A stretch of DNA of 40,000 nucleotides from Colwellia asteriadis (GTDB lineage Bacteria; Pseudomonadota; Gammaproteobacteria; Enterobacterales; Alteromonadaceae). The notes beneath the pieces were generated by a model. The model had not been told where the DNA came from. It did not search any database and saw nothing but the letters and a program-made list of their open reading frames with translations. Location: the NCBI RefSeq assembly GCF_039523295.1, contig NZ_BAAAFA010000009.1:104217-144216 (forward strand). Reading direction: 5' to 3'. Positions 4,899 to 34,487 of this stretch are shown in pieces. A program made the translations under genes and the position numbers. Numbering within the stretch: the stretch's first letter is position 1; every line of letters begins with the position of its first letter.

Positions 4899-5092
4899 AA
4901 CCTGAGCTCGGCTTAACAAATGTTTCTCTAGCAGCTACTTTTCCTAACTTCTTCGTTAAATTTACTTGCAATAGGCTAGCTATTGACGCGAAATTTGCCT
5001 TGAATTAAGAAAAACTATCAAGCTAGAGACTCAGAAAAGTAATTTTTCTGATATTTCAATTTGTTAAATATCTCTTAAACCGAGTTCAGGTT
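4899..5092 (+). mobile_element. MITE-like non-autonomous element, copy 1 (194 bp; 13-bp internal deletion relative to copies 2 and 3)
   Basis: Left end AACCTGAGCTCGGCTTAACAAAT. Reverse complement of the right end is AACCTGAACTCGGTTTAAGAG (16/18 terminal identity). Flanked by direct TAATT (4894-4898) and TAATT (5092-5096). The last T is ambiguous between the TIR and the duplication, so the TSD is 4 or 5 bp. Confidence 0.75.
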
Positions 5093-5147
5093 AATTAAAC
5101 ATGTGAGCGGCTTATTTATTGTTATAAAAATTTATTGCTATAAAAAT

Positions 5148-13490: not shown

Positions 13491-13545
13491 TTAGTCTCTT
13501 CCTTGTGAAATAAAATTATAATGTTAAAGCTATTGTTAGGTATAT

Positions 13546-13583
13546 AACCTGAACGCGGTTTAAGAGATATTTAATAAATTGAC
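13546..13583 (-). repeat. Solo right-end fragment of the MITE-like element, inverted orientation
   Basis: AACCTGAACGCGGTTTAAGAGATATTTAATAAATTGAC closely matches the reverse complement of the right end of the full copies. Lies 56 bp upstream of the GGDEF/EAL start codon. Confidence 0.65.
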
Positions 13584-13685: not shown

Positions 13686-13892
13686 AACCTGAGCTCGGCT
13701 TAACAAATGTTTATCTAGCAGCTACTTTTCCTAACTTCTTCGTTAAATTTACTTGCAATAGGCCAGCTATTGACGCGAAATTTGCCTTGCTTATCATATG
13801 AAAAGAAGAAAAACTATCAAGCTAGAGACTCATAAAAGTAATTTTTACTGATATTTCAATTTGTTAAATATCTCTTAAGCTGAGTTCAGGTT
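13686..13892 (+). mobile_element. MITE-like element, copy 2 (207 bp)
   Basis: Same TIRs as copy 1. Flanked by direct TAAAT (13681-13685) and TAAAT (13892-13896). Internal TTGACG-N16-TATCAT (13770-13797) points rightward. Confidence 0.8.
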
Positions 13893-14194
13893 AAATAATA
13901 ACAGTAATCAGATTTGATGAATTTCGATTTTCATTAAGACGCCTATTTTTAAATCACCGATAATGTCACGATAAGTTTTACATTTACTATTTGATTTTTA
14001 ACGGTTTATTTTTATTTTCGTTCAGTAGTATAAAAATTATATTCTTGCAGAATAAAAGGTGCTACATTCTGCAAATCACGATACTTTCATCGATTATCAC
14101 GAACTCAAAATCCGTCCTACATCAACTGAAAAAATCCTAAAGACTACGTATCGCGATAATAACTTTGGTCTAATTTTTTTAAGGAATATCAAAC

Positions 14195-15640
14195 GTGTAT
14201 AAAACACTTATTGTAGTGGATGATGAATACGTTGCATTGGATAAAGATCGCAGCGATGTGATCAGTTTTGAAAAGTATTTACGTGAGTACCCAAAACTAA
14301 ATGAGCCGAAAACACGTATTATTAATTTATGTGACACCGAACAATACTTAAGCAAAGGTTACTATTGCTCACTATTGGCAGAGGCGCGCAACCATATTGT
14401 GTTACCTAGCGTAAAAACTATTAATGGTTTACGTAATTTAGCGCATGATAGCGATAACTTTGCGGTATTATCACATTTAACTATTGGCCTTAATACGGTT
14501 ACTAATAAACATGTGTTTTTTGGTAAAAGTGATAGCAGTGAGTTAGATAAATTAACAGCAAAAATTTTTGCATTATACCCAGCCCCGTTATTAAATTTAT
14601 CGGTACAACAGCTTAATGGTCAAGCAAATATTACCATTACTCGTATGTCATTTTGTGATCTTGATGAAGCGCAAAAGCAGTGCTTTTTAACACAACTTGA
14701 AGGCTTTAATAAAACCTTATGGCGAATTAATAACAGTCGTAAAAACTATCGTTGGGATATGGCTATATTAGTCGACCATCAAGATAAAGTGCCGCCAAGT
14801 AATAAAGAAGCTATTTCACGTTTTGTAAAAGCCGCGGCCAAATTTGGTATTAACGCCAACGTGGTAAGTATTGATCAAATTGATAATATCGCTCATTACG
14901 ATGCTTTATTTATTCGAGAAACCACTGCGATAGATCACCATACTTATCGTTTAGCACGAAAAGCTGAAGATTTAGGGTTAGTTGTAATAGACGACTCAAC
15001 CTCTATTTTACGCTGTTGTAATAAAGTGTATTTACACGATGCTTTTAATTATAAAAAGGTACGTAGTTTAAAAACTGAAGTGGTTAACAACCAAAGTGTA
15101 GAAACCATTACAGCACTAGAGCAAGCGTTTACTTACCCTGTGGTATTGAAATTGCCTGAAGGCTCTTTCTCTAATGGCGTATTTAAAGCGAAAAATAGGG
15201 AAGAGCTGTCAGCTAAATTAGACGAGCTATTAAAAGTGAGTGCATTGGTATTAGTACAAGAATACTTATATACCGAGTTTGACTGGCGCATTGGCGTATT
15301 AAACGGTAGAGCTATTTATGCTTGTAAATATTTAATGGCGCGCGGACATTGGCAAATTTATAACCACAGCGCTAAACGCTTTTTCTCAGGTGATTTTGAA
15401 ACGCTGCCAACGTTTGAAGTGCCTAAATATGTTTTAGATTCAGCATTACGCGCAGCAAGTGTCGTTGGCACAGGGCTTTATGGCGTAGATATTAAGGCTG
15501 TTGATAATAAAGCCTATGTACTTGAAGTGAATGATAACCCGAGCATAGATTACAAAGTTGAAGATGCCTACCTAAAAGATGAATTATACATGCAAGTTAT
15601 GGCAGAGTTTAATCGTCGCTTAGAAGAGCGTGGTCGATAA
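14195..15640 (+). CDS. RimK-type ATP-grasp amino-acid/peptide ligase with N-terminal RLAN-like domain
   Basis: GTG start with AAGGAA 8 nt upstream. The N-terminus (..YLSKGYYCSLLAEARNHIVLPS..) resembles the RimK-like ATP-grasp N-terminal domain. The C-terminal half has an ATP-grasp layout (..PVVLKLPEGSFSNGV..VLVQEY..DWRIGVLNG..YGVDIK..VLEVNDNPS). Confidence 0.75.
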   Translation: MYKTLIVVDDEYVALDKDRSDVISFEKYLREYPKLNEPKTRIINLCDTEQYLSKGYYCSLLAEARNHIVLPSVKTINGLRNLAHDSDNFAVLSHLTIGLNTVTNKHVFFGKSDSSELDKLTAKIFALYPAPLLNLSVQQLNGQANITITRMSFCDLDEAQKQCFLTQLEGFNKTLWRINNSRKNYRWDMAILVDHQDKVPPSNKEAISRFVKAAAKFGINANVVSIDQIDNIAHYDALFIRETTAIDHHTYRLARKAEDLGLVVIDDSTSILRCCNKVYLHDAFNYKKVRSLKTEVVNNQSVETITALEQAFTYPVVLKLPEGSFSNGVFKAKNREELSAKLDELLKVSALVLVQEYLYTEFDWRIGVLNGRAIYACKYLMARGHWQIYNHSAKRFFSGDFETLPTFEVPKYVLDSALRAASVVGTGLYGVDIKAVDNKAYVLEVNDNPSIDYKVEDAYLKDELYMQVMAEFNRRLEERGR

Positions 15641-15642
15641 TA

Positions 15643-16779
15643 ATGGCTAACACACGGGGCAATGTGCATTACCGTATCGCACAAAGTAGCGATTTAAATG
15701 CTTTAGTCGCTCTAGAGAATAACTGTTTCGAGCAAGACAAATTAAGTAAGCGTAGTTTACAGCATTGGATCAAAGCGCATCACGGTATTTTATTAATCGC
15801 CGAGCGTTATATTGACGCGAGCTCTGAGCTTCAACAGCTTATTGGTTATGGCTTAGTTTGGTGTCATAAAGGTACGCGTTTAGCACGTTTATATTCTTTA
15901 GCGGTAGCGCCAGCGTGTCGAGGACAGCATATTGCCAGCGGTCTTTTAGCGCAACTTGAACAAGAAACGCTAATACGTAACCATTATTTTTTACGCTTAG
16001 AAGTGGCTAAGAACAATGGCGCAGCCATTAAGTTATACCAGGGTTTAGGTTATCGTGTTTTTGGTGAATACAGTGATTATTATGAGGATCACAGTGATGC
16101 TTATCGTATGCAAAAACAGCTATTACGAAAAACACCATCAGACTTTCAAACCATAACACCTTGGTACCAACAAACCACTGAGTTTACCTGTGGTCCAGCC
16201 TCATTAATGATGGCAATGAACAGTTTACATGCTCCAATAGTGATGACGCAGCGTTTAGAATTAGACTTGTGGCGTGAAGCAACCACCATTTTTATGACCT
16301 CAGGTCATGGTGGTTGTCATCCTGTTGGCTTAGGTAACGCTGCTAAAAAGCGAGGTTTTGACGCTAAAGTTTTTATTAACCAGCAAACTCCTTTATTTGT
16401 CGATGGAGTAAGAGCCCCTCATAAAAAGCACATTATGCAAAGTGTCCATCAACAATTTATTGAAGACGCTCAAGCGCTGGCGGTTGATGTGAGGTTTGAT
16501 GATATTAATCAACACCAGCTGGCGAAATTACTCAGTGATGGCTATGCGGTTATTTTATTAATTAGCACCTACCGCTTAGATGGAAAAAAAGCACCGCACT
16601 GGGTTACCGTGACCGGTTTTGATGAATTATGCTTTTATGTGAACGATCCAGACTTAGACGATAAACAGCAGCTACCTATTGATTGCCAATATTTACCAAT
16701 ATCAGGTGATGACTTCGACAAAATGTCGATGTTTGGCGGTGGAAAACTACGTACTGCAGTGGCAATTAAACGATCGTAA
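15643..16779 (+). CDS. Fusion protein: N-terminal GNAT (RimI-like) acetyltransferase and C-terminal C39-like papain-fold cysteine peptidase
   Basis: GNAT acetyl-CoA motif region (..LAVAPACRGQHIASGLL..YQGLGYRV). The C-terminal part has TEFTCGPASLMMAM (candidate catalytic Cys), ..APHWVTVTG (His) and VNDPD (Asp). Start is 2 nt after the ATP-grasp stop. Confidence 0.7.
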   Translation: MANTRGNVHYRIAQSSDLNALVALENNCFEQDKLSKRSLQHWIKAHHGILLIAERYIDASSELQQLIGYGLVWCHKGTRLARLYSLAVAPACRGQHIASGLLAQLEQETLIRNHYFLRLEVAKNNGAAIKLYQGLGYRVFGEYSDYYEDHSDAYRMQKQLLRKTPSDFQTITPWYQQTTEFTCGPASLMMAMNSLHAPIVMTQRLELDLWREATTIFMTSGHGGCHPVGLGNAAKKRGFDAKVFINQQTPLFVDGVRAPHKKHIMQSVHQQFIEDAQALAVDVRFDDINQHQLAKLLSDGYAVILLISTYRLDGKKAPHWVTVTGFDELCFYVNDPDLDDKQQLPIDCQYLPISGDDFDKMSMFGGGKLRTAVAIKRS

Positions 16780-16961
16780 AAGCAGAACATTACCATCGTT
16801 TACATGGCAGCAGCTATTCAATTTATAGCCGTTTATTTACCCCCATATTTACGTTACAATGCGCGACTATTTGCGTTTTGTCGCTTGCCGTATTTTTTGC
16901 GTGGTAATTTAAGTCAGTCAATGGCGTTATTAAATTAGCGTTGACCACGCGCTAGCAACAA

Positions 16962-17007
16962 TCGCTAACATGCCATAACTATTAGGAATGTTAGCGGATA
17001 TTTTTTC
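16962..17007 (+). terminator. Rho-independent terminator candidate after the ATP-grasp/GNAT operon
   Basis: TCGCTAACAT (16962-16971) pairs with ATGTTAGCGA-like (16988-16998), followed by TATTTTTT. Confidence 0.45.
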
Positions 17008-17065
17008 AAAACGTCTATGTAATAAATTGATATAATTACAATAATTTAAAGTATTCAGAAGGCTT

Positions 17066-18164
17066 ATGTTCGAAACTAACCCAGTATTAAGTAAGTTAAA
17101 AGAAATTCGCGAGCGTGCAAACCTGCTTAGGGGGTACCTTTGACTACGATGTTAAAGCCGAGCGCTTAATTGAAGTTACCCGCGAATTAGAATTACCCGA
17201 TGTTTGGAATGAACCAGAAAGAGCGCAAGCGCTAGGAAAAGAGCGTAGCGCGCTTGAAGAAGTCGTAAAAACTATTGTTGAGCTTGAAACAGGCTGTGAA
17301 GATATTGAAGGCTTAGTGGAACTTGCTGTTGAAGAATCTGATCAAGATACTTTTGACGATGCAACAGCTGAAGCCGAAGCGCTTGATGCCGTTTTGGAAA
17401 AATTAGAGTTTCGTCGTATGTTTTCTGGCGAGCAAGACGCCAACAACTGTTATTTAGATATTCAATCAGGATCAGGCGGCACCGAAGCGCAAGACTGGGC
17501 AGAAATGCTGATGCGTATGTATTTACGCTGGGGTGAAGCACATGGTTATAAAACCGAAGCCATTGAAGTTACTGATGGCGATGTTGCTGGCATTAAAGGT
17601 TGTACGATAAAATACACCGGTGAATTTGCTTATGGCTGGTTACGTACTGAAACAGGGGTTCACCGTTTGGTTCGTAAATCACCGTTTGACTCATCTGGTC
17701 GTCGTCATACCTCATTTGCTTCAGCGTTTATTTACCCTGAAATAGATGACAATATTGATATTGACATTAACCCAGCTGATTTACGTACCGATACTTTCCG
17801 TGCTTCAGGTGCTGGTGGTCAGCATGTTAACAAAACAGACTCAGCAATTCGTATTACCCATATTCCAACGGGCGCTGTGGTTGCTTGTCAGGCTGACAGA
17901 TCACAACATAAAAACCGCGCGACTGCGATGAAGTTGCTTAAAGCCAAGCTTTATGAAATGGAAATACAAAAGCAAAACGAAGGCAAACAAGAATTAGAAG
18001 ATGGAAAATCAGATATTGGTTGGGGCAGTCAAATTCGCTCTTACGTACTTGATGATAGCCGTATTAAAGATTTAAGAACGGGTGTTGAAAACAGAAACAC
18101 TCAAGCCGTACTTGACGGTGATTTAGATAAATTTATTGAAGCGAGTTTAAAGTCTGGCTTGTAA
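17066..18164 (+). CDS. prfB: Peptide chain release factor 2, expressed by programmed +1 frameshift (17066..17140 joined to 17142..18164)
   Basis: Frame 0 reads [25 protein letters not shown] then in-frame TGA at 17141. The +1 frame continues DYDVKAERL... through the SPF and GGQ ([11 protein letters not shown]) motifs. Confidence 0.93.
17129..17144 (+). promoter_or_regulatory. prfB autoregulatory +1 frameshift site
   Basis: AGGGGGTACCTTTGAC is an internal Shine-Dalgarno-like AGGGGG, 3 nt, then slippery CTT followed by TGA C. E. coli has AGGGGGUAUCUUUGAC. Confidence 0.9.
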
Positions 18165-18221
18165 AATTACTGAATTACCTTTGAACCTATTGAACAAATT
18201 ACAGATAACTTTGGAAATAAA

Positions 18222-19814
18222 ATGACAGATAAAGCCAATAAAACCAGCCAAGAAAATAATGCATCCGCAGCGCAAGATGAAAACAAGCTAATTGCTGAGC
18301 GCCGCGTAAAACTTGAGAAAATTCGCTCAAATTCTACGGCGAATGGTTTTCCTAATGATTTCAATCGCGAACATTTAGCGGCAGACATTCAAGCGGAACA
18401 TGGTGAAAAAACCAAAGAAGAGCTTGAAACACTGCAACTCACTTATGCTATTGCTGGTCGTATTATGGCTAAACGTGGACCATTTTTAGTAATTCAAGAC
18501 TCATCGGGTCGTATTCAAGGTTACGCTGAAAAAACTGTACAAAAAGAAATTCGTGAAAAGTGGGGCTCGTTAGATATTGGCGATATCGTAGGTATTAAAG
18601 GTATTTTACATAAGTCAGGTAAAGGCGACCTTTACGTTAATATGGACGAATACTCATTACTAACTAAATCACTGCGTCCGTTACCAGAAAAATTCCACGG
18701 CTTGTCTGATCAAGAAATGAAGTATCGTCAGCGTTACGTTGATTTAATTATCAATGAAGACACACGTAACACCTTTAAAATCCGTTCAAAAATTGTTGCG
18801 GGTATTCGTAACTTTTTAACACAACGTGATTTTATGGAAGTTGAAACGCCAATGTTGCAAATCATACCTGGTGGCGCAACAGCCAAACCATTTATGACGC
18901 ACCACAACACGTTTGATCTTGATATGTATTTACGTATCGCGCCTGAATTAAACTTGAAGCGTTTAGTGGTAGGTGGCTTTGACCGTGTATTTGAAATCAA
19001 CAGAAGCTTTCGTAATGAAGGTATTTCAACACGTCACAATCCAGAATTTACGATGATCGAATTCTATCAAGCCTATGCTGATTACCATGACTTGATGAAC
19101 ACTACTGAAGACATGCTTCGTACTATTGCGCAAGATGTTTTAGGTACAACGACTATTCGTAATACCGTTAAAAATAGTGATGGCGAAGTAGTAGAAGAGA
19201 AATTCTATGACCTAGGTAAGCCGTTTGCACGTCTTTCAATGGTTGATGCTATTTTACAATACGGTAAAGATCACCGCGGTGCAGAGCAACTTGATGAAGC
19301 AGCATTACGTGATCCAGAAAACAACTTTGATGCGATTAAAGCGATGGCAAAAGCAGTTGGCGTAAAAGAAAGTGATGCGTCTAAAGTGTGGGGACCTGGT
19401 AAATACATCTGTGAAATTTTTGAAGAAGTAGCAGAGCATTTATTAGACCAGCCAACGTTCATTACAGAATACCCGTGGGAAGTTTCACCGCTTGCGCGTC
19501 GTAACGATGAAAACCCATTCATCACAGATCGTTTTGAATTCTTTGTTGGTGGTCGTGAGTTGGCTAACGGTTTCTCAGAGCTTAATGATGCAGAAGACCA
19601 AGCTGAACGTTTCCAAAAGCAAGTAACAGAAAAAGATGCGGGTGACGATGAGGCAATGCATTATGATGCTGATTATATCAATGCGCTTGAATACGGTTTA
19701 CCGCCAACTGCCGGTGAAGGTATTGGTATCGATCGTTTAGTAATGTTATTTACTGATTCACCAAGCATTAAAGACGTTATTTTGTTCCCACATATGCGCC
19801 CTGAAGCTGAGTAA
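18222..19814 (+). CDS. lysS: Lysine--tRNA ligase (class II)
   Basis: Class II motifs [20 protein letters not shown] and [12 protein letters not shown]. Immediately downstream of prfB as in E. coli. Confidence 0.93.
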
Positions 19815-19872
19815 ATCGTTTAGAAAGGGATTTTAGTTACCCTGAACTTTCTTTCTCAAGCGACACGTAATA

Positions 19873-19900
19873 AAAAGCCAAACATATGTTTGGCTTTTTA
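19873..19900 (+). terminator. lysS rho-independent terminator
   Basis: AAAAGCCAAACA (19873-19884) pairs with TGTTTGGCTTTT (19887-19898), followed by a T-run. Confidence 0.75.
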
Positions 19901-20246
19901 ATTTTAGAAAGTGCCTAAAGGTTTTAATTATTTTAGGTGCTTATCAAAAAATGCCAACATCTCCGTTAATGTTTGAATACGATGCTTTTGTACACTAAAA
20001 ATTGAATTTATATCTGAACTTGTAAGTTCAAAAGTAGGACTTTACTTAAACTAACCATTTAGTACGCTAAGATGATGTTAACTACTGGTTATTTTTTAGG
20101 TCAGTAATTAGCCAATTGCTGACATTAAGCCTTTGCAAATTCAGGAGCATATTTACTTAAATATTAATCAAGACTTTCTGCTCGTCTGTTAGACGGGTGT
20201 AAGCTCATTGCTGCCATTGATTGATCATATCCAATACTAGCTAGCA

Positions 20247-20281
20247 CAACAAAAGCCTTAGCCATTAACTAATAAGGCTGT
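20247..20281 (-). terminator. Terminator candidate for the RexAB-like operon
   Basis: On the minus strand AGCCTTA (20273-20279) pairs with TAAGGCT (20254-20260), followed by TTTGTTG. Lies 35 bp past the 159-aa ORF stop. Confidence 0.45.
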
Positions 20282-20313
20282 TGCAGCTTATTGATAACGC
20301 AAGTGTGGCCTAA

Positions 20314-20793
20314 TTAACTTTGTGTTGAATTCTTGGTCTGATTAATAGCTGATGTAGTTATTAATGCTATGTGTATAAAATTCACTACTATCAATGTAAG
20401 TATTATTTTTAGCCAAATAATTGTTTGGCCTGAAAGCAACATTAATATACATAAGCTAAAAGTGAATAATAAAAATGTGATTGCGGCAGCATATAAGTGA
20501 TAGAAAAGCTTAAGGTAACCAGCATTGCGCCATAATGTAAAGCTAGGGTTGTTTGATACTGAAAGAATATAAGCCCCTATTGCAGCTATGAAACCTGTCA
20601 TAGTCATACTGAATGACGTTAATATGCTAATCAATAAATCAGTATTTTTAGGAACTATGTGAGGAAAGAGTGATACACCAATACATTTAGTTATGATCCA
20701 ATAAATAAAAAGTAAAGCAGGGCTAAGTAATGCAGATATTAACCATATTCCTCTTGCAAATGATTTGATTTCATCATTGGAAAGCTGACGCAT
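20314..20793 (-). CDS. Four-TM small membrane protein, RexB-like (candidate membrane effector)
   Basis: 159 aa with four long hydrophobic segments. The segment ..NFIHIAL.. near the C-terminus and a central ..GY.. loop resemble lambda RexB (144 aa, 4 TM, ..SFIHICIL..) as recalled. ATG lies 2 nt after the upstream stop, with GAAGG upstream. Confidence 0.55.
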   Translation of the reverse strand: MRQLSNDEIKSFARGIWLISALLSPALLFIYWIITKCIGVSLFPHIVPKNTDLLISILTSFSMTMTGFIAAIGAYILSVSNNPSFTLWRNAGYLKLFYHLYAAAITFLLFTFSLCILMLLSGQTIIWLKIILTLIVVNFIHIALITTSAINQTKNSTQS

Positions 20794-20795
20794 GT

Positions 20796-21773
20796 TTAAC
20801 CTTCACTCTCATCAATTAAGTAAGTGTCTTTATTTGAAAGTTTAGACCAATTTGAGCAAGAATGGTCAGTCGTTATCCTGTCACTAACACCTTCAATATA
20901 TGCGTTATAGGCATCTACAATAGACTGATTGGCGTATCTTTTATCTTGAATTTGCATCTCTATAGAAGCTTTCAAATAAGGGTTGATGATGTCAAAAAGT
21001 ATCATCGAATGATCTAAGAAATAATCTTTAATGTTTTCCTGAAGGCTATTTTGTTTTGCCCTAAGGTGTACTTCTGCAAACTCTTTGCCATTAGTATCTG
21101 ATTGTATTAAATCAAGTAGTGGCTTAATGTCTTTTTCAATTCCATTTTTAATGCCAGTACGCTTTACACTGATACTAATTTCTACATTGTTATCAGGTGT
21201 GTTACTTGCTAATAAACCAGACAAAATTCCATTCATACTGGTTTTTCCATTTAGGATTACGTTAGCTTGCGATATTAGCTTCAACTTCCCTACAGATGAC
21301 TTACTAACTTCACTTTGAAGTGGTATTACTTTTAGTTGGTATTTTTTTATATCAGGGCCATATATTCCATTCAATATTTCATTTAAGTAGTATTCAAGAT
21401 CATCTACTGAAGCCCCGCCTAAAGATGAAGTAACACCAATTATAGGTTTACTCTTATCAAAATGGATGTATGTAACTTTTTCTAAACTATCACCGTCTTC
21501 TAAAACTTCATTTAAGTCCTTTATGACACCAGACCCTTTATTAAGAGTTCTATAATTGGCTAAGGACGCAGGTACCATCAAATAGTAAACATCGGGATAA
21601 ATTTCTGCTTTAGCAAAATATAGATTTTTAGATGACTTATCATGATACTTTTCAAGAATTGATTTTTTACTTTGGTGCTTACAATAGACTTCAACAATGT
21701 CAGATATACAAATATTGCAAATTTTGCCAGTGTCTTTAAAGGTTATAGTGTATGCGTAATAATTTAGTTTCAT
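20796..21773 (-). CDS. Soluble 325-aa protein, RexA-like (candidate phage-sensing partner)
   Basis: No TM segment or signal peptide. Several segments are collinear with lambda RexA as recalled: the N-terminus (MKLNYYAY vs MKNGFYAT), IKDLNEVLEDGDSLE vs VEDIKNSLADDESLG, IGV..GGASVDDLEYYL vs IGF..GPTTSDLTDFL, and VHLRAKQ vs ISLRAKD. The DNA is very AT-rich. Confidence 0.55.
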   Translation of the reverse strand: MKLNYYAYTITFKDTGKICNICISDIVEVYCKHQSKKSILEKYHDKSSKNLYFAKAEIYPDVYYLMVPASLANYRTLNKGSGVIKDLNEVLEDGDSLEKVTYIHFDKSKPIIGVTSSLGGASVDDLEYYLNEILNGIYGPDIKKYQLKVIPLQSEVSKSSVGKLKLISQANVILNGKTSMNGILSGLLASNTPDNNVEISISVKRTGIKNGIEKDIKPLLDLIQSDTNGKEFAEVHLRAKQNSLQENIKDYFLDHSMILFDIINPYLKASIEMQIQDKRYANQSIVDAYNAYIEGVSDRITTDHSCSNWSKLSNKDTYLIDESEG

Positions 21774-21812
21774 GGCCTTTTATTAATCCGTGGCAGGGAA
21801 TCCTATAAATCA

Positions 21813-21842
21813 ACTATACCTTTAAAAATGATGTTCAGTCAA
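21813..21842 (-). promoter_or_regulatory. Sigma70-type promoter candidate for the RexAB-like operon
   Basis: Minus strand reads TTGACT (21842-21837), 18-nt spacer, TATAGT (21818-21813). About 40 bp upstream of the start at 21773. Confidence 0.4.
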
Positions 21843-22060
21843 AAATATAATTGTCATAATTTTTGGTAACATAGGTGTAAATATTCATTAAAATGATTTA
21901 AAGATAACGCCTACTAGTTAAAAAGGAGCATTATCCATTAATTAGTAATTACTAATGACTGCAATGGTGGCAATTTTGCCAGTCAGGTTATTCAACTCAT
22001 TGGTAAAATTTATAGTCAAACAATACATTTTATATCTGTGGGGAACGTCCGGTTTCGTAT

Positions 22061-22279
22061 CTAAGTGAATATAAAATAGGATGATTTCAATCGATTGTAT
22101 GACCCTTCTTTTACTTCTGAGGGAAGACTATTGGCTAGCTTTTGTTTTGCTTTAATCTCCATCTCTTTAACAGAGCAAGCATCACATAATATATTGACAT
22201 CTTTTGCTAATAATTGATTAGACGTTGCTAATAGAAGCGTAGTTAAACCTATACCAGTTAGAACATTTATTTTTTTCAA
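22061..22279 (-). CDS. Small secreted hypothetical protein (72 aa)
   Basis: TTG start preceded by AGGAA at 5-6 nt. Signal-peptide-like N-terminus (..LLLATSNQLLA|KD). No recognisable family. Confidence 0.35.
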   Translation of the reverse strand: MKKINVLTGIGLTTLLLATSNQLLAKDVNILCDACSVKEMEIKAKQKLANSLPSEVKEGSYNRLKSSYFIFT

Positions 22280-22367
22280 TATGTTTCCTTGAGCTTAATT
22301 GAATCACCAAATGATAGCCTGAGTAGTTACAATAGGAGCAGTAAAAATAATGCTAGCAGTAGGCGTT

Positions 22368-22422
22368 CAGAAAAGAGAAAGCCTCGTGTAAAGCGCCATA
22401 AAAAAAACGATACACGAGGCTT
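22368..22422 (-). terminator. Terminator hairpin downstream of the TonB-dependent receptor
   Basis: AAGCCTCGTGTA (22379-22390) pairs with TACACGAGGCTT (22411-22422). On the minus strand it is followed by TTTCTCTTTTCT. Confidence 0.5.
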
Positions 22423-22480
22423 TATTATAACTTGAGCTAGGTTAATACTAATGCAGCTCGCATAGTATTTTGCTCGCTAA

Positions 22481-24526
22481 TTAATATTGATAATTCAACG
22501 TTAGCTTAAAGTTTCGACCAACTTCATTATCGTTGTACTTTTCATTACCCCAGTACATACCAAAACTATTATGATCTTGATAAGCTTTATCAAAGATATT
22601 ATCGACACCAAATTGCACCGATAATCCCGCGACTTCTACTGGGCTATAATTTAACCAAGCATTACTTACACCGTAGCCAGCTTTTAATACATCGTCATGC
22701 ACTAGGTCACCTTGGCGATTGAAATAAGTATCGGTTAACTCTGCATTATCAGCTAAAAATGTATCCCAACCGATAACTAAACTATCACCTAGGGCATAAT
22801 CAAAACTTAAATTTACACGTTGTGTGCCAGCAGTTAAAGCGTCGGTTACATAGCTTTGGTAATCTTTATCTCCTGTGTTGTAGCTATACTTTATAGATGC
22901 ATTTAAGCCCTGATATGAGAGGCTAACGCCAGCTTCCATACCTTGCATTTCTAAATCGTGGGTTTTATTTAAGCTAGTATTTTTAGTTGGATGATAAAAG
23001 TGATCAATATTATATTGATAGACATTGGCAAAAATATTAAAGGAATCAATATTTGTTAATGATTGTAGATCATAAAGTACATTGAATTCGTAATGGTTAC
23101 CTGTTTCTGGTTCAACATCAGGCGACTCTTCCATACCTTCTTGAATCATTAGGGTTTCAGGTAAACCCGGACCTTTAAAAATACGACCGTATGACAAGCC
23201 TAATTTTAAATCATCATTAGCCTGCCAATTAGCGATAAACTTAGGCGACGCTTCGCTAAAGCTAGTATCGTAGGTTCCACCTAAACTGTAGTCATCGTAA
23301 CGCAGCCCTGGGATAAGTTGTACACTACCGAAGTTAAGTTCAGCTTGTACATAACCACTAATTAAGGTTGCGGTCGGGCCGTCTTCAAAAGAAATATGCT
23401 CGCTAAATTGGCTACCATCGCTTAGCGTATAATGAGCTAACCCTTTTGCTGAAATACTCTGTTCAGATTTAAAACTCTCAATACCATAGGTCCATGCGAT
23501 ATCTGAAATGATTGAAGTATTACGAATATTTAAACCTGATGTTTTATAATGGTACATGCGCTTAGGAGTCGTAGATGTTCCGTCTTTGTGCCATTTACCT
23601 TGCGAGTCTCGGTACCAATTATCACCTGTTGCTCCTTCACGCTCCATTTGCTTATCGTTGTAATAAACATTAATGTTTAAATCGAGTAGTGGATTTTCAC
23701 TTACGTTATAATAATTTAGTGTATAAGTATCGCGGATATAACCGTTATAGCCTAAGTGCTCTTCTAATGTTTTTGCACCGGGCTTTTCACCTGAAAAGTT
23801 ACGATTACCACCGTCATCATAGCGCTGAGCACTAAAATCAAACTGTTGTGTTTCATCAAAGTCGTAAACGACTTTAATCAAACCACTTGTCAATTCACTA
23901 TGCTTACTAACAATAGGGTCATTATCTGGTGTTTCTATATCACCAGACTCATTCATATTAGCCATGGCTAACAGACTTAATTTCTCGGTTGCTCTGCCGT
24001 ATAACGCAAGGTTAAGCTGTCTAAATTCAGTTGCTGTATCTGCGCTAGCTCCAGCGGTAAAACCAAACTTTTGCTCAGGTAATAATAAATCAGCAGGGTC
24101 TTTAGTTTCATACTTAATTGCACCTACATTGGCGCCATAACCGCTTAGCACTGATGATGCGCCAAGCAGAACCTCTACGCGTTTAAGCATATTAGTATCA
24201 ACCATTTGGTTACCTGAGTGGTGAAACAGCTGGCCATCTTGGCGAGCGCCATCAATAGTCACATTGGCAGAATGTTCTTCAACGCCACGCACATAAACTT
24301 TTTGACTATATCTAACGCCATTGGCAACACTTACACCAGCAACTTTTTTTAAGGCACTTTTTATATCGTTAGCTTGAATGTTTTCGAGATCTTTCGCGCT
24401 AACTTCGGTGTTAGTACTTATTGCATCATCTGTAACTTTAGTTTCAGCTAAACGTTGTGCTTCAGCCGCTAAGGTTTGAGCGCTTAGAAATGAAGCGATA
24501 ACAAAAGATAAATATTTTTTTTTCAT
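22481..24526 (-). CDS. TonB-dependent receptor (681 aa), probably iron-complex (siderophore/haem-type)
   Basis: Signal peptide, plug-domain motifs (VEVLLGASSVLSGYGA.GAIKYETK) and terminal ..LTLNYQY. A Fur-box-like operator lies in its promoter. Confidence 0.88.
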   Translation of the reverse strand: MKKKYLSFVIASFLSAQTLAAEAQRLAETKVTDDAISTNTEVSAKDLENIQANDIKSALKKVAGVSVANGVRYSQKVYVRGVEEHSANVTIDGARQDGQLFHHSGNQMVDTNMLKRVEVLLGASSVLSGYGANVGAIKYETKDPADLLLPEQKFGFTAGASADTATEFRQLNLALYGRATEKLSLLAMANMNESGDIETPDNDPIVSKHSELTSGLIKVVYDFDETQQFDFSAQRYDDGGNRNFSGEKPGAKTLEEHLGYNGYIRDTYTLNYYNVSENPLLDLNINVYYNDKQMEREGATGDNWYRDSQGKWHKDGTSTTPKRMYHYKTSGLNIRNTSIISDIAWTYGIESFKSEQSISAKGLAHYTLSDGSQFSEHISFEDGPTATLISGYVQAELNFGSVQLIPGLRYDDYSLGGTYDTSFSEASPKFIANWQANDDLKLGLSYGRIFKGPGLPETLMIQEGMEESPDVEPETGNHYEFNVLYDLQSLTNIDSFNIFANVYQYNIDHFYHPTKNTSLNKTHDLEMQGMEAGVSLSYQGLNASIKYSYNTGDKDYQSYVTDALTAGTQRVNLSFDYALGDSLVIGWDTFLADNAELTDTYFNRQGDLVHDDVLKAGYGVSNAWLNYSPVEVAGLSVQFGVDNIFDKAYQDHNSFGMYWGNEKYNDNEVGRNFKLTLNYQY

Positions 24527-24582
24527 GTTGTTCCTACAAAAATATATCCCATAACAGGAGTAGGTAAAAAAGAAACTAGATC

Positions 24583-24604
24583 CTAAATGATAATGATTAT
24601 CATG
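24583..24604. promoter_or_regulatory. Fur box candidate
   Basis: CTAAATGATAATGATTATC (24583-24601) matches GATAATGATAATCATTATC at 15/19. It contains the near-palindrome ATGATAAT/GATTATCAT and sits in the spacer of a TTTACA-N17-TAGGAT promoter on the minus strand, 57-75 bp upstream of the receptor ATG. Confidence 0.65.
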
Positions 24605-24948
24605 TAAAGTCGTATTTAGGGCTTTAACTCTAAATAAAGTTCATTGATAAAAAATATAAATAACAACTTGTTAAGGGAGAAAGCGCTAATGGAACAGGTT
24701 TAATATGTTAATAACTTGTAAGTGATACTTTGCTTAAAGCGCTGTACACAGAGTGATACACAGTGCTTTTTACTTTTTTTAACAGTTAAAGCTATTTTTC
24801 TTGAGCGTAATTGCGTAAATTAGTGCGCTAATAAAAGTATGGTCACTTAAAACAGTAACCATGATAAAAATAGCCTTGTACTTGAGACCTTATTATAAAA
24901 ATAACTCAATAAGTTATAGGCAATAAAACGCAAAAAATGGGGAAGTAA

Positions 24949-26301
24949 ATGGGTGTTTCAAGAGGCGGCTTTAGCTCGCGATTAGGCTTTATTATGGCCG
25001 CTGCAGGCTCTGCGGTAGGGTTAGGTAATATTTGGGGCTTTCCAACTCAAACTGCTAGTAATGGTGGTGCCGCATTTGTATTGGTTTATTTAGTGTTAGC
25101 ATTTTGTTTAGCTTACCCAGCATTTATGGCGGAGTTACTTATTGGTCGTTACGGTCAAGCTAACGCGGTGACCTCAATGCAAAAAATAGCGCGCAATACT
25201 AGAGAAAAACGTTTTGGTTTTGTCGTCGGTTTTGGCGGTATTATTTGTGCGGCACTTATTTTAAGTTTTTATGGCATTATTGCTGGTTGGATGATTTCCT
25301 ATGCGGTAGAGCCTCTGGCTTTGTTAGCTGGTTTTAACGAATCGGCGAATTGGCTCACCAATCATTCATTGACACGTAATATTCTTTTCACAACATGCTT
25401 TATGGCGTTAACCATTTTTATTATTCGTCGTGGTGTTGAACAGGGGATCGAAAAGTGGTCGAAACGTTTAATGCCAATGCTCATTGGTTTGTTGATTTTA
25501 TTAATTATTTACGTTTTCACTTTAGATGGTTCTAGAGCAGGCTTTGAAGCCTATTTAAACCCCGATATTTCTCGAGTATTAGAGCCTGATTTATTAATTA
25601 GTGCCTTAGGGCAGGCATTTTTCTCACTCTCACTGGGTACCAGTGTGATGATTATTTACGGCTCTTATATCGCGAAAAAAGAGAATTTAGTCACGTTAGG
25701 GGCACAAGTAACACTTATTGATGTGTCTATAGCCTTTTTAGCAGGCTTACTGATTATTCCTGCAATGTATGTTGCTCAAGCTCAAGGCGTTGCTATATTC
25801 GCTGAAGATGGTAGCTTAATATCAGGCTCTAACTTAGTGTTTACGGTACTACCCGCGTTATTTTCAGGTATGGGCTATGTGGGATTGTTTGTCGCTTTTG
25901 GCTTCTTTGTTTTAATGTCGATAGCTGCATTAACCTCTAGTATTTCAATGCTTGAAGGGCCTGTATCATTTGCTGTTGAGCGCCATGATATACCGCGTGA
26001 AAAAGCGACTACTATGATTGGGCTAGGTATTTTACTTTTAAGTACGATCATTGTTGTTAACTTAGATTGGATGTTAGATTTTGTTGCGATTTTATCAACA
26101 CAATACGGCCAGCCAATTATTGCTATGTTATGTTGTATTTTTGCTGGCTGGGTTTGGCAGCGCAGCGGTATTCTCGCTGAAATAAAGCAAGGTAATGCGG
26201 AAGTAGAGCACAGTGTTTTTTGGAAAATTTGGCCTTGGTACACTAAGTTTGTTTGCCCTACGGCAATTGCATTAGTCTTTTGGCACTCGTTAGCAAGTTA
26301 A
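24949..26301 (+). CDS. Sodium-dependent transporter, NSS/SNF family
   Basis: N-terminal SRLGFIMAAAGSAVGLGNIWGFP signature, about 12 TM segments, good GGGGAAG RBS. Confidence 0.9.
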   Translation: MGVSRGGFSSRLGFIMAAAGSAVGLGNIWGFPTQTASNGGAAFVLVYLVLAFCLAYPAFMAELLIGRYGQANAVTSMQKIARNTREKRFGFVVGFGGIICAALILSFYGIIAGWMISYAVEPLALLAGFNESANWLTNHSLTRNILFTTCFMALTIFIIRRGVEQGIEKWSKRLMPMLIGLLILLIIYVFTLDGSRAGFEAYLNPDISRVLEPDLLISALGQAFFSLSLGTSVMIIYGSYIAKKENLVTLGAQVTLIDVSIAFLAGLLIIPAMYVAQAQGVAIFAEDGSLISGSNLVFTVLPALFSGMGYVGLFVAFGFFVLMSIAALTSSISMLEGPVSFAVERHDIPREKATTMIGLGILLLSTIIVVNLDWMLDFVAILSTQYGQPIIAMLCCIFAGWVWQRSGILAEIKQGNAEVEHSVFWKIWPWYTKFVCPTAIALVFWHSLAS

Positions 26302-26329
26302 ATGTAGTCTAATTAAGCCTTAATTTTAA

Positions 26330-26360
26330 AAAAGCAAGTGACTAAGCACTTGCTTTTTGC
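26330..26360 (+). terminator. Rho-independent terminator after the NSS transporter
   Basis: AAGCAAGTG (26332-26340) pairs with CACTTGCTT (26348-26356), then TTTGC. Confidence 0.65.
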
Positions 26361-26391
26361 TTATTAGGGAATGGAAAAACGATTATTGTAT

Positions 26392-26760
26392 TTAGTCACT
26401 CGCTACATTGCTATTTATATTACTAGCTACACTGTTATTGACATCGACATCGACATCGACATCCGTATTTACATCCATAAAGTGCCCATAAAATACTTTC
26501 GCAGTTACCAAGGCCTCGATTGGTTTTGCACTGGGGTAATTTGACCATTTCGCTTTAGATTTGGCGACAGCTGCTTCATCTTTCCATACTAAATACCAAC
26601 ATAACTGTGTTGGGTTATCAGTTTTTCGTAATATTTGATGTGAAATTAATAACTCTTGCTCAGCATTCATCTCTTTAAATAACGATAAACTTAATGAAAT
26701 TATTTTTGCTTGATTGGCTGGCGGCACATCAAATACTGCTAATTCATTACAGTAGGGCAT
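26392..26760 (-). CDS. Hypothetical 122-aa protein, possibly dimeric alpha/beta-barrel (ABM-like) fold, with a repetitive acidic tail
   Basis: Core ..LCWYLVWKDEAAV.. is reminiscent of ABM-type domains (weak). The C-terminal DVDVDVDV is encoded by a hexanucleotide repeat. Confidence 0.4.
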   Translation of the reverse strand: MPYCNELAVFDVPPANQAKIISLSLSLFKEMNAEQELLISHQILRKTDNPTQLCWYLVWKDEAAVAKSKAKWSNYPSAKPIEALVTAKVFYGHFMDVNTDVDVDVDVNNSVASNINSNVASD

Positions 26761-26785
26761 AGTTTTTCTCGTTTTTTGATTAGTT

Positions 26786-26992
26786 AACCTGAGCTCGGCT
26801 TAACAAATGTTTCTCTAGCAGCTATTTTTCCTAACTTCTTCGTTAAATTTACTTGCAATAGGCCAGCTATTGACGCGAAATTTACCTTGCTTATCATATG
26901 AAAAGAAGAAAAACTATCAAGCTAGAGATTCTGAAGAGTAATTTTTTCTTATATTTCAATTTGTTAAGCACTTCTTAAACCGAGTTCAGGTT
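26786..26992 (+). mobile_element. MITE-like element, copy 3 (207 bp)
   Basis: Same TIRs as the other copies. Flanked by direct TAGTT (26781-26785) and TAGTT (26992-26996). Roughly 90% identical to copy 2 by eye. Confidence 0.8.
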
Positions 26993-27025
26993 AGTTAGGG
27001 CACATATATGCCACTACATGGTTAT

Positions 27026-32548: not shown

Positions 32549-32594
32549 GCGTTTTTTCACTGTAATATTAACTACTATGGCATGAGATGAGGGC

Positions 32595-32687
32595 AAAAAA
32601 ATACGCCCACTAAGGAGCGTATAAAACATGAAACACTAGGGAGTACATTACTCCTAATATAAGAGTGCTTATATTCTAATTAGTTCA
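32595..32687 (-). ncRNA. Candidate sRNA, array unit A (divergent paralogue)
   Basis: Minus-strand hairpin TACGCTC/GGGCGTA followed by T7. Its stem substitution gives G-U on the minus-strand transcript but C-A on the plus. Upstream TTTACA-N18-AATATT. The 5' end is a guess. Confidence 0.3.
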
Positions 32688-32745
32688 AAAAATATTCAAT
32701 CTTTTTATTTTAAGTGTAAATAGTAGGTTTTGGCCAATTTTAGAC

Positions 32746-32834
32746 AAAAAAATACGCTCACAATGGAGCGTATAAAAACATGATAAGGGAATAACATTAC
32801 TGTTAAGTAAGAGTGTAGTCTTGCTAGTTAGTTC
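32746..32834 (-). ncRNA. Candidate ~89-nt sRNA, array unit B
   Basis: Minus strand reads TTAGCT-N17-TAAAAT (32869-32841). The predicted start is near 32834. The body carries the hairpin UAACA-GUAA-UGUUA and a U/C-rich UUAUUCCCUUAUCAUGUUUUU stretch. The terminator is ATACGCTC-CATTGT-GAGCGTAT followed by T7. Confidence 0.4.
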
Positions 32835-32915
32835 AATTTAATTTTACTTTTCTTGAGTAAATTAGCTAAATTTTAATTTTTATTCAGCTTAAACACGACA
32901 TACTGAATTTTAGGC

Positions 32916-33004
32916 AAAAAAATACGCTCACAACGGAGCGTATAAAAACATGATAAGGGAATAACATTACTGTTAAGTAAGAGTGTAGTCTTGCTAGTTA
33001 GTTC
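32916..33004 (-). ncRNA. Candidate ~89-nt sRNA, array unit C
   Basis: Same architecture as unit B. Promoter-like TTAGCT-N17-TAAAAT is conserved and the terminator is intact, with only a loop substitution. Confidence 0.4.
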
Positions 33005-33085
33005 AATTTAATTTTACTTTTATTGAGTAAATAAGCTAAATTTTTAATTTTATTCAGTTTAAACACGACATACTGAATTTTAGAC

Positions 33086-33173
33086 AAAAAAATACGCTCA
33101 CAATGGAGCGTATAAAAAACATTAAGGGAATAACATTACTGTTAAGTAAGAGTGTAGTCTTGCTAGTTAGTTC
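33086..33173 (-). ncRNA. Candidate ~88-nt sRNA, array unit D
   Basis: Same architecture as unit B, with a 1-nt net deletion just upstream of the terminator. Promoter-like element conserved. Confidence 0.4.
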
Positions 33174-33254
33174 AATTTAATTTTACTTTTATTGAGTAAA
33201 ATAGCTAAATTTTTAATTTTATTCAGTTTAAATACGACATACTGAATTTTAGGC

Positions 33255-33343
33255 AAAAAAATACGCTCACAACGGAGCGTATAAAAACATGATAAGGGAA
33301 TAACATTACTGTTAAGTAAGAGTATGGTATTTTCATTTAGTTC
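33255..33343 (-). ncRNA. Candidate sRNA, array unit E (divergent 5' and promoter region)
   Basis: The terminator and 3' two-thirds are identical to units B-D. The region upstream of about 33325 diverges and the -10 is not conserved. Confidence 0.25.
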
Positions 33344-33434
33344 CATTTCATTTGTTTTTTCCTTAAATTATTTTTATGCAATGTGTCATGAGTTCTGGCA
33401 TTATCTTAACTACCTGTAAGTTAGTTGATTTTTT

Positions 33435-34394: not shown

Positions 34395-34457
34395 GAGCAG
34401 AAAATAATTTTGCTAATATTTAAATTTGTTAAATATCTTTTAAACCGAGTTCAGGTT
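34395..34457 (+). repeat. Solo right-end fragment (~63 bp) of the MITE-like element
   Basis: GAGCAGAAAATAATTTTGCTAATATTTAAATTTGTTAAATATCTTTTAAACCGAGTTCAGGTT aligns with the right third of the full copies. No left end nearby. Confidence 0.7.
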
Positions 34458-34487
34458 AAGTACATTAGTGTTGAGTTAGTAAAGTTA

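Follow-up and report, generated by a model that had tools for sequence, protein, structure and literature searches.

The 40-kb window analysed here, a stretch of the Colwellia asteriadis chromosome (contig NZ_BAAAFA010000009.1, positions 104,217 to 144,216), carries downstream of lysS a compact pair of genes that, with high confidence, belongs to the RexAB family known from phage lambda. We read the pair as a self-promoted, horizontally acquired RexAB-family cassette that most likely acts as an abortive-infection (phage-exclusion) system, and we put the probability of this reading at roughly 0.7. RexAB is the oldest known abortive-infection system. It is catalogued as a defence system that is mostly prophage-encoded and restricted to Proteobacteria (10.1101/2021.09.02.458658). 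Both genes lie on the reverse strand. The rexA-like gene (20796..21773) is an open reading frame (ORF) for a protein of 325 amino acids (aa), a predicted soluble two-domain DNA-binding sensor, and the rexB-like gene (20314..20793) encodes a 159-aa four-helix membrane protein, the putative effector. A preliminary description of the window, made from its letters alone, had placed these two ORFs and a third of 72 aa where we find them, had noted that rexB starts 2 nucleotides (nt) past the rexA stop codon (TAA-AC-ATG), and had likened the pair to lambda RexA and RexB from shared motifs. The positions and the 2-nt gap are correct, and the likeness is borne out by Pfam, PADLOC, hhalign, Foldseek and a transitive homology search.

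The 325-aa protein is a homologue of lambda RexA

Against the Pfam RexA family (PF15969) the 325-aa protein scored 60.9 bits (gathering cut-off 25; E = 1.7e-16), with residues 1-242 aligned to positions 1-230 of the 235-position model, and it matched the PADLOC RexA model over positions 1-260 of 267 (E = 5.4e-15). Precomputed Pfam matches exist for 49 of its 51 homologues, and PF15969 is found in all 49. The clade homologues, 313-326 aa in length, come from Paraglaciecola, Idiomarina, Vibrio, Klebsiella, Lelliottia, Pectobacterium, Salmonella and Serratia, and a Klebsiella member (P0041) shares 41% identity with the Colwellia protein. None of them has been given a functional name in the database; the RexA proteins of Colwellia and Paraglaciecola, and both proteins of the pair in E. 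coli, are annotated as hypothetical protein, and the Colwellia asteriadis entry is 100% identical to the 325-aa protein.

A single-sequence phmmer search of the PDB with the 325-aa protein found no match, so a profile of the clade was needed. This profile (A1, 26 members) had a sole matching sequence in the PDB, 8TWQ 'Protein rexA' (E = 1.4e-5), and hhalign aligned it with lambda RexA at 91% probability over 208 columns with about 23% identity. The AlphaFold2 model of the protein, with a predicted local distance difference test score (pLDDT) of 83, shows the RexA-type fold, in which a split globular domain is combined with a dimerisation domain in an RdgC-related arrangement. In a Foldseek search of the PDB, lambda RexA supplied the top two matches (8TWQ at E = 9.8e-12, the second at about 4e-10; probability 1.00), followed by E. 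coli RdgC (2OWL, E = 3e-4). This ranking mirrors the published kinship of the two proteins, RexA having been described as an RdgC-like two-domain protein (PMC11077077). The global template modelling scores (TM-scores) of the model against 8TWQ were low, at 0.31-0.43, which likely reflects a hinge between the two domains of the modelled structure.

All of the motifs named in the preliminary description are present in both proteins of each pair. For RexA these are, in lambda and Colwellia respectively, MKLNYYAY/MKNGFYAT, DGDSL/DDESL, IIGV/TIGF, DLEYYL/DLTDFL and LRAK/LRAK, and for RexB the motif is FIHI. Except for the N-terminal one they fall in profile-aligned columns; the Pfam RexA model aligns from residue 1. 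The LRAK motif carries residues of known function. Lambda DISLRAKD (215-222) aligns with EVHLRAKQ, with L218-R219-A220-K221 of lambda corresponding to L237-R238-A239-K240 of Colwellia. R238 and K240, the counterparts of lambda R219 and K221, are invariant across the 26 clade members, and DNA binding is abolished in the R219A/K221A double mutant of lambda RexA (PMC11077077). We conclude that the 325-aa protein is homologous to RexA: it has the fold common to lambda RexA and RdgC and keeps both basic residues on which DNA binding by lambda RexA depends.

The 159-aa protein is a divergent RexB homologue

The PADLOC RexB model matched residues 33-155 of the 159-aa protein over positions 24-140 of 141 (41.1 bits, E = 5e-11). 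With Pfam RexB (PF15968) the score was 13.2 bits (gathering cut-off 27; E = 0.13), and the protein is therefore not filed in that family; the sub-threshold alignment is collinear, with residues 38-155 on positions 16-137 of 139. Profile searches were thus positive in both libraries for RexA and in PADLOC, not in Pfam, for RexB. A clade profile of 12 members (A2) was aligned by hhalign with lambda RexB at E = 1.4e-4 over 104 columns, collinear, with 29% identity and with the R..GY and FIHI motifs included; the probability given by hhalign was only 52%. When A2 was searched against 1.84 billion representative proteins, 80 were retrieved, including P0216 (E = 9.5e-9) and P0262 (E = 7.7e-4). Many of the 80 match lambda RexB, among them P0216 (41 bits) and P0262 (35 bits), and these two also pass Pfam RexB, at 40.3 and 32.1 bits respectively. 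P0216 and P0262 thus complete a transitive chain of homology from the 159-aa protein to RexB.

Hydropathy analysis gave four hydrophobic blocks in the 159-aa protein and in lambda RexB, and the AlphaFold2 model (pLDDT 84) consists of long helices at residues 6-38, 48-79, 93-120 and 125-157 plus one short helix, in agreement with the four hydrophobic helices described earlier. A fold search with this model among viral models had as its best match an unnamed phage protein at E = 0.059. The profile matches, the transitive chain and the topology together identify the 159-aa protein as a divergent RexB homologue with four predicted transmembrane helices, lying outside the present limits of the Pfam family.

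The resemblance to RexA and RexB might still be spurious, the pair being an unrelated soluble protein and membrane protein, and a number of searches came back empty in line with this: phmmer against the PDB, PHROGs and NCBIfam (no match for either protein) and a tblastn search of phage genomes, to which the sub-threshold Pfam score and the weak fold match of the RexB-like protein can be added. Pfam, PADLOC and the clade profile nevertheless agree for RexA, as PADLOC and the clade profile do for RexB; lambda RexA is the top structural match at probability 1.00, the functional residues are conserved, and the order and coupling of the genes are as in lambda. We therefore consider a chance resemblance extremely improbable for the pair, and for RexA it is effectively refuted. 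Since the PADLOC models recognise both proteins, the family is a known one, of which the Colwellia pair is a divergent member.

The pair forms a minimal cassette with its own predicted promoter

DNA homology with the closest relatives extends from about 75 nt 5' of the rexA ATG to the rexB stop codon. By blastn, Paraglaciecola aquimarina (L091) is 80% identical over window positions 21843-20314 and a metagenomic contig (L090) 78% over 21851-20309, which delimits a portable cassette of about 1.54 kb on the reverse strand (20309..21851) made up of promoter, rexA-like gene and rexB-like gene. The promoter is a sigma-70-like predicted element, TTGACT-N18-TATAGT (21813..21842, reverse strand), which the preliminary description had pointed out; it matches the consensus at 10 of 12 positions and lies about 40 nt 5' of the rexA ATG. 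The promoter scan returned 12 sites in total, against 15.2 expected by chance. The -35 and -10 elements of the cassette are both kept in L090, L091 and L092, and the -10 element is kept in L087 and L088.

The order of rexA followed by rexB on the same strand with tight spacing is kept in every clade locus examined and in lambda. Compared with all relatives, both Colwellia ORFs are intact and of full length, and the ratio of non-synonymous to synonymous substitution rates (dN/dS) is about 0.07 for rexA and about 0.13 for rexB, values that indicate purifying selection on both genes. The G+C (GC) content of the cassette is 31-38% in every host and stays at 31-32% in E. coli and Klebsiella despite flanks of 53-57%. 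Thirty nucleotides past the rexB stop codon there is a hairpin, AGCCUUA...UAAGGCU followed by UUUGUUG (20247..20285, reverse strand). It folds no better than shuffled sequences (z +1.1) and was not picked up by the terminator scan; the terminator previously ascribed to this place could at most be a weak one.

The cassette occupies a strain-variable slot downstream of lysS

The limits of the insertion were obtained from Colwellia sp. D2M02 (L095). Window positions 13830-20127 are 97.2% identical to D2M02 and positions 22044-26796 are 98.8% identical, with nothing aligned between them. D2M02 shares the prfB-lysS ... receptor-SNF framework, including a receptor protein that is 100% identical, and holds in the slot 2386 bp with a LysR regulator and a major facilitator superfamily (MFS) transporter instead of the rex cassette. 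Given this identity of the flanks, the true islet is the strain-variable segment 20128..22043 (1916 bp, GC 0.322; BLAST against D2M02), and not 19901-22380 as previously described. Neither the 72-aa ORF nor the two strong terminators fall within it; all three are part of the shared backbone. The first of these terminators, after lysS (19871..19900), is a perfect 15+15 nt palindrome (inverted repeat I1, 100% complementary) that folds at -16 kcal/mol (z -4.6); with A/T runs on both sides it could also stop read-through from rexAB. The second is the receptor terminator (22378..22423, z -6.8). The hairpin after rexB lies inside the variable segment.

C. psychrerythraea ND2E, whose LysS is 96% identical, resumes about 65 bp past lysS with sequence matching window position 24742, and has no counterpart of 19815-24741, a stretch that takes in the receptor along with the rex pair and the 72-aa ORF. 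A more distant relative shows another arrangement again after lysS. The pair is therefore not conserved at this locus in all relatives, both ND2E and D2M02 being without it there, and the slot after lysS (window 19815-24741) is a general, multi-layer hotspot of variation rather than a defence island. Its content has presumably been swapped by recombination in the conserved flanks. The junctions, read base by base, show no direct repeats at the true breakpoints; the islet ends otherwise gave only short two-copy families at chance level.

The rex pair was probably acquired horizontally, as it is absent from ND2E, replaced by the LysR and MFS genes in D2M02 and AT-rich in every host. In the window, GC is 0.30-0.34 across 20001-22500 compared with 0.37-0.42 in the flanks, and rexA (0.319, z -3.4) and rexB (0.315, z -3.6) have the lowest values when set against the 24 other ORFs of at least 100 aa (a tabulation that leaves out three ORFs inside larger opposite-strand genes). 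Ordinary intergenic DNA elsewhere in the window is equally AT-rich (GC 0.275-0.296). GC at third codon positions (0.258 in rexA, 0.256 in rexB) reaches no further than the lower limit of the host values (z about -2.4), and the codon usage of rexA is inside the host range. The AT-richness noted earlier is thus real, whereas codon usage does not set rexA apart from its host.

The pair lies outside any prophage in the window, as first reported. Among the scanned window proteins there is no cI/cro, integrase, repressor or phage gene, and the 40 kb contain no tRNA gene. To look for remnants of mobility genes, the window was compared by tblastn with integrases, with the Vibrio HTH_36 protein and with genes that adjoin related cassettes; this gave only noise (E > 0.2), and a search of the non-coding DNA flanking the cassette with Rfam for non-coding RNAs gave sub-threshold noise only. 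One could suppose that the cassette is a relic drifting without function, all that survives of the cargo of a satellite, integrase islet or prophage that had been inserted behind lysS and has since decayed. Close relatives do lie beside integrases or in P4-like satellites, with no mobility gene left here, and about 190 nt of unique AT-rich DNA remain on each side of the cassette within the variable segment. A relic is nonetheless very unlikely, because both ORFs are intact and full length with the low dN/dS values given above, the promoter sequence is conserved, tblastn finds no pseudogene fragments of an integrase or HTH protein, and the junctions lack att-like direct repeats.

Two features of the backbone adjoin the segment. 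A 24-nt imperfect palindrome, GTCAGTAATTAGCCAATTGCTGAC (20100..20123), lies 4 nt from the left breakpoint and is unique in the window. It is also present in D2M02 with 5 mismatches in an ungapped comparison, is followed by a T-run on neither strand, and might be a protein-binding or recombination site. On the other side, the 72-aa ORF (22061..22279, reverse strand) has a TTG start and a signal-peptide-like N-terminus and lies outside both the cassette and the variable segment, contrary to the earlier claim that it shares the islet. Its counterpart in D2M02 (L095 4504-4677) meets a stop codon 15 codons earlier and encodes 57 aa (..SEMK* compared with ..SEVKEGSYNRLKSSYFIFT*), a truncation that casts doubt on its status as a gene, and it has no family match in the profile libraries used. 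We considered it as a third cassette gene and rejected it, since it is part of the backbone common to both strains, D2M02 has only a truncated form, and the small upstream ORFs of the relatives are unrelated.

Further variation was seen at this place. Pseudocolwellia HL-MZ7 has entirely different genes downstream of lysS, and a metagenomic relative has an S9 peptidase and receptor inverted, then ATP-binding cassette (ABC) transporter genes.

Relatives of the cassette lie in satellites, integrase islets and a defence island

In P. aquimarina an integrase is directly upstream of the cassette. In Vibrio (L001-L003 9093-12608) the cassette forms a minimal integrase islet adjoining alaE, in the order HTH_36 protein, rexA, rexB and tyrosine recombinase. 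In Klebsiella and E. coli (21 of 5426 complete genomes) it is carried by P4-like satellites at tRNA-Leu, where it fills the cargo slot between psu and int. On a marine metagenomic contig (L087 3468-12522) it stands directly beside a Zorya type I system, with ZorA-like, OmpA/ZorB, EH_Signature/ZorC and SNF2-Mrr/ZorD genes, and a type I restriction-modification system, a locus that is a typical defence island, while on other marine contigs it is found among unannotated small genes. These loci show that a unit of about 1.5 kb moves between satellites, integrase islets, a defence island and the present chromosomal slot.

A tblastn search of 50,697 phage genomes gave no match to the clade. In IMG/VR at least three contigs carry it, all of them P4-like satellites among the matches listed, and bona fide phages appear not to harbour any of the clade. 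By tblastn, a distant RexA-like protein, annotated as hypothetical, was found on nine small plasmids of Acinetobacter, with 22-24% identity at about 95% coverage. We propose tentatively, as a reading somewhat less likely than not, that this RexAB lineage, with RexA of 313-326 aa and RexB below the Pfam cut-off, may have left temperate phages altogether. Across Alteromonadales, Vibrionales and Enterobacterales its self-promoted 1.5-kb cassette would then circulate in P4-like satellites, in integrase islets, in defence islands and in hotspots of the core genome. If this were true, the copies without CI/Cro would be a natural experiment in which phage exclusion, not switch modulation, is the selected Rex function, and the near-isogenic pair of C. 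asteriadis and D2M02 would offer a clean system for finding the trigger of RexA.

We also asked whether the unit is an integron gene cassette and ruled this out, because no attC core-site pair was found within 300 nt downstream of rexB on either strand in the window and in eight related loci.

Some further observations were made at the related loci. One Vibrio strain has further accessory genes, among them a HipA/HipB toxin-antitoxin pair, next to the cassette. The Acinetobacter pittii plasmid p2_100004 (L097 4001-6647) has an ISAba26 transposase gene immediately downstream of the RexA-like gene, at the place expected for RexB, and then an ORF of 97 aa. On the metagenomic contigs L092 (4782-5141) and L093 (1418-1624), small ORFs lying upstream of the cassette resemble fragments of an IS110-family transposase by eye (MSVAKVIGIDLGKSTFHL... 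and ...CCGAHWLARH...); if the resemblance is real, insertion sequence (IS) activity may have taken place beside the cassette in the past.

Comparison with known systems and likely function

The Colwellia pair resembles lambda RexAB in the order and tight spacing of the genes (15 nt apart in lambda, 2 nt in Colwellia), in the fold, profile membership and LRAK motif of RexA with its DNA-binding Arg and Lys, and in the similar size, four hydrophobic helices and R..GY and FIHI motifs of RexB. It differs in sequence (about 23% identity for RexA and 29% for RexB by hhalign), in a RexA that is 46 aa longer (325 compared with 279 aa), and in having its own sigma-70-type predicted promoter, whereas lambda rex is co-transcribed with cI from PRM. 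It also has no cI/cro, operators or phage genes nearby and sits in a strain-variable chromosomal slot. The location in an immunity region and the co-expression with a repressor are thus not found in the 40 kb; detection tools require neither, and their absence implies a less lambda-like regulation and leaves family membership unaffected.

By analogy with lambda, a RexA-like dimer would be activated by phage-derived DNA or a DNA-protein intermediate and would then trigger the RexB-like membrane protein. The latter would dissipate the membrane potential, and the collapse would abort the infection by stopping cell and phage together.

Three groups of published systems come close to the Colwellia clade. 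A 'distant analog of RexAB' from the P4 hotspot gave moderate protection against P1vir in a preprint by Rousset et al. (10.1101/2021.01.21.427644). Members of the Colwellia clade occupy that same psu-int slot in E. coli and Klebsiella, although the Colwellia copy itself has no surrounding satellite. Sucellos (SclAB), which consists of cassettes of the Vibrio cholerae chromosomal integron, needs both genes for anti-phage activity (10.1101/2024.07.02.601686). It is likewise a two-gene RexAB-like system that occurs in marine Gammaproteobacteria, is located elsewhere than in a lambdoid immunity region and is frequently carried by mobile elements (10.1101/2024.07.02.601686). By its description, however, the Rex domains of Pfam do not match it, unlike the RexA of Colwellia, which passes Pfam RexA, and it is integron-borne, whereas the cassettes of the Colwellia clade have no flanking attC-like sites. 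The Rex-like pairs of actinobacteriophages (Sbash gp30, CarolAnn gp44 as well as Toast gp42 with their partners) have RexA homologues of 337-372 aa, which are divergent and longer than that of lambda, dimerise, show non-specific DNA binding and act to exclude other phages (PMC11077077). These pairs are prophage-encoded next to CI/Cro-like regulators (PMC11077077), in contrast to the Colwellia clade, which was found in none of the 50,697 phage genomes.

RdgC offers a comparison of another kind. It is the second-best structural match to the RexA-like model, with the two-domain scaffold of lambda RexA; no relationship was detected at the sequence level, and in Pfam the Colwellia protein scores as RexA, not as RdgC. 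RdgC is encoded by a core gene that stands alone, with no partner in the membrane. A genuine RexAB homologue could have been kept for a role other than defence. The RexA-like protein could be an RdgC-like DNA binder that modulates recombination, replication restart or gene expression, the RexB-like protein could be its partner in the membrane, with effects on energy metabolism, proteolysis or survival in stationary phase, or the two could be a toxin-antitoxin-like addiction module that merely stabilises its host DNA. Besides the fold match with RdgC, such a role would fit the action of lambda RexA on the switch independently of RexB (PMC11077077), the suggestion that exclusion may be a by-product together with the occurrence of RexA homologues outside prophages, which had been noted before (PMC11077077), the metabolic or regulatory nature of the alternative slot cargo, and the absence of further defence genes from the window. 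Yet the CI/Cro or operator context that a switch role calls for is absent here, the strict pairing and coupling of RexA and RexB at all loci argue for a two-component sensor-effector unit, the clade prefers classical sites of anti-phage cargo (the P4 psu-int hotspot and places beside Zorya and restriction-modification genes), and the distribution is patchy and strain-specific, unlike that of core factors such as RdgC. We regard a non-defence role as unlikely, if less so than a relic.

Abortive infection thus remains our preferred explanation. Since there is no CI/Cro switch nearby, biasing of the decision between lysogeny and lysis cannot explain the retention of the pair, which favours defence, and so does the finding of a conserved, phage-free cassette that differs between two almost identical strains. 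Several points weigh against this explanation. They include the low global TM-scores of the RexA model and the Pfam score, hhalign probability and fold search of the RexB-like protein, and GC3 and rexA codon usage go no further than the edge of the host range. The slot is a hotspot of variation in general, the LysR and MFS cargo of D2M02 is not defensive, and the 40-kb window holds no second recognisable defence gene. Text searches of the published version of the satellite-hotspot study, which presents seven robustly validated systems, did not find 'Rex', and as far as its searchable text goes the moderate protection of the preprint appears not to have been retained. The P4 analogue tested there may, to judge from the shared slot, belong to the Colwellia clade. 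The authors of the RexA structure, moreover, question exclusion as the true function of Rex proteins and consider it possibly a by-product (PMC11077077); in lambda, exclusion is intertwined with the CI/Cro switch.

The known picture of the family is unchanged by these results, as a non-prophage RexA, a satellite analogue of RexAB and an integron RexAB-like system had already been reported. What they add is modest: a minimal self-promoted cassette has been precisely delimited, two near-isogenic strains are seen to differ by it, and its clade appears as a whole to lie outside bona fide phages. The strain pair is a simple comparative system in which the defence role can be tested. DefenseFinder models for RexAB were taken from Pfam (10.1101/2021.09.02.458658), and because the RexB here falls below the Pfam threshold, the clade may be under-counted by censuses of the DefenseFinder type.

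Other features of the window

The 24 other ORFs are housekeeping genes or ORFs without a family match. The neighbours include yaaA, porins, receptors, a DEAD-box helicase, flavodoxin, dsbC, recJ, a GGDEF-EAL protein, a RimK-like protein, prfB, lysS, an SNF transporter, a pseudouridine synthase, an M16 peptidase, gshA, an SLT transglycosylase, corC and ffh. The TonB-dependent receptor that follows the islet had been described as Fur-regulated, and a Fur-box-like palindrome (AAATGATAATGATTATCATGTAA region, 24583-24607) does precede its gene, matching the consensus at 15 of 19 positions on both strands about 60-80 nt upstream of the start. Homologues of this receptor are labelled 'hemoglobin/transferrin/lactoferrin receptor' by the Joint Genome Institute (JGI).

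Two kinds of repeat were noted. The AT-rich gap between gshA and the SLT transglycosylase gene holds a tandem array of a 170-nt unit (32592-33353), for which Tandem Repeats Finder (TRF) gave 3.5 copies with 95% match (32736-33323) and BLAST about 4.5 copies. Similar repeats are found at the syntenic place in C. psychrerythraea ND2E (L007 19224-20128). The second repeat is an element dispersed in intergenic DNA that measures about 65 nt and has TTAAACCG(A/C)GTTCAGGTTA as its invariant core. It has at least four copies in the window (5031-5098, 13531-13582 on the reverse strand, 26934-26993 and 34401-34462) and one in D2M02 (L095 13348-13416). The D2M02 contig ends inside a copy of the element, as expected of a genome-wide repeat. 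The element could be of the repetitive extragenic palindromic (REP) or miniature inverted-repeat transposable element (MITE) type, or a conserved regulatory or terminator element.

Finally, prfB carries at 17067-17145 the classical programmed +1 frameshift site of release factor 2 (RF2), with the ATG at 17067 and CTT AGG GGG TAC CTT TGA C at 17126-17144; owing to this frameshift the ORF list starts the gene only at 17115.

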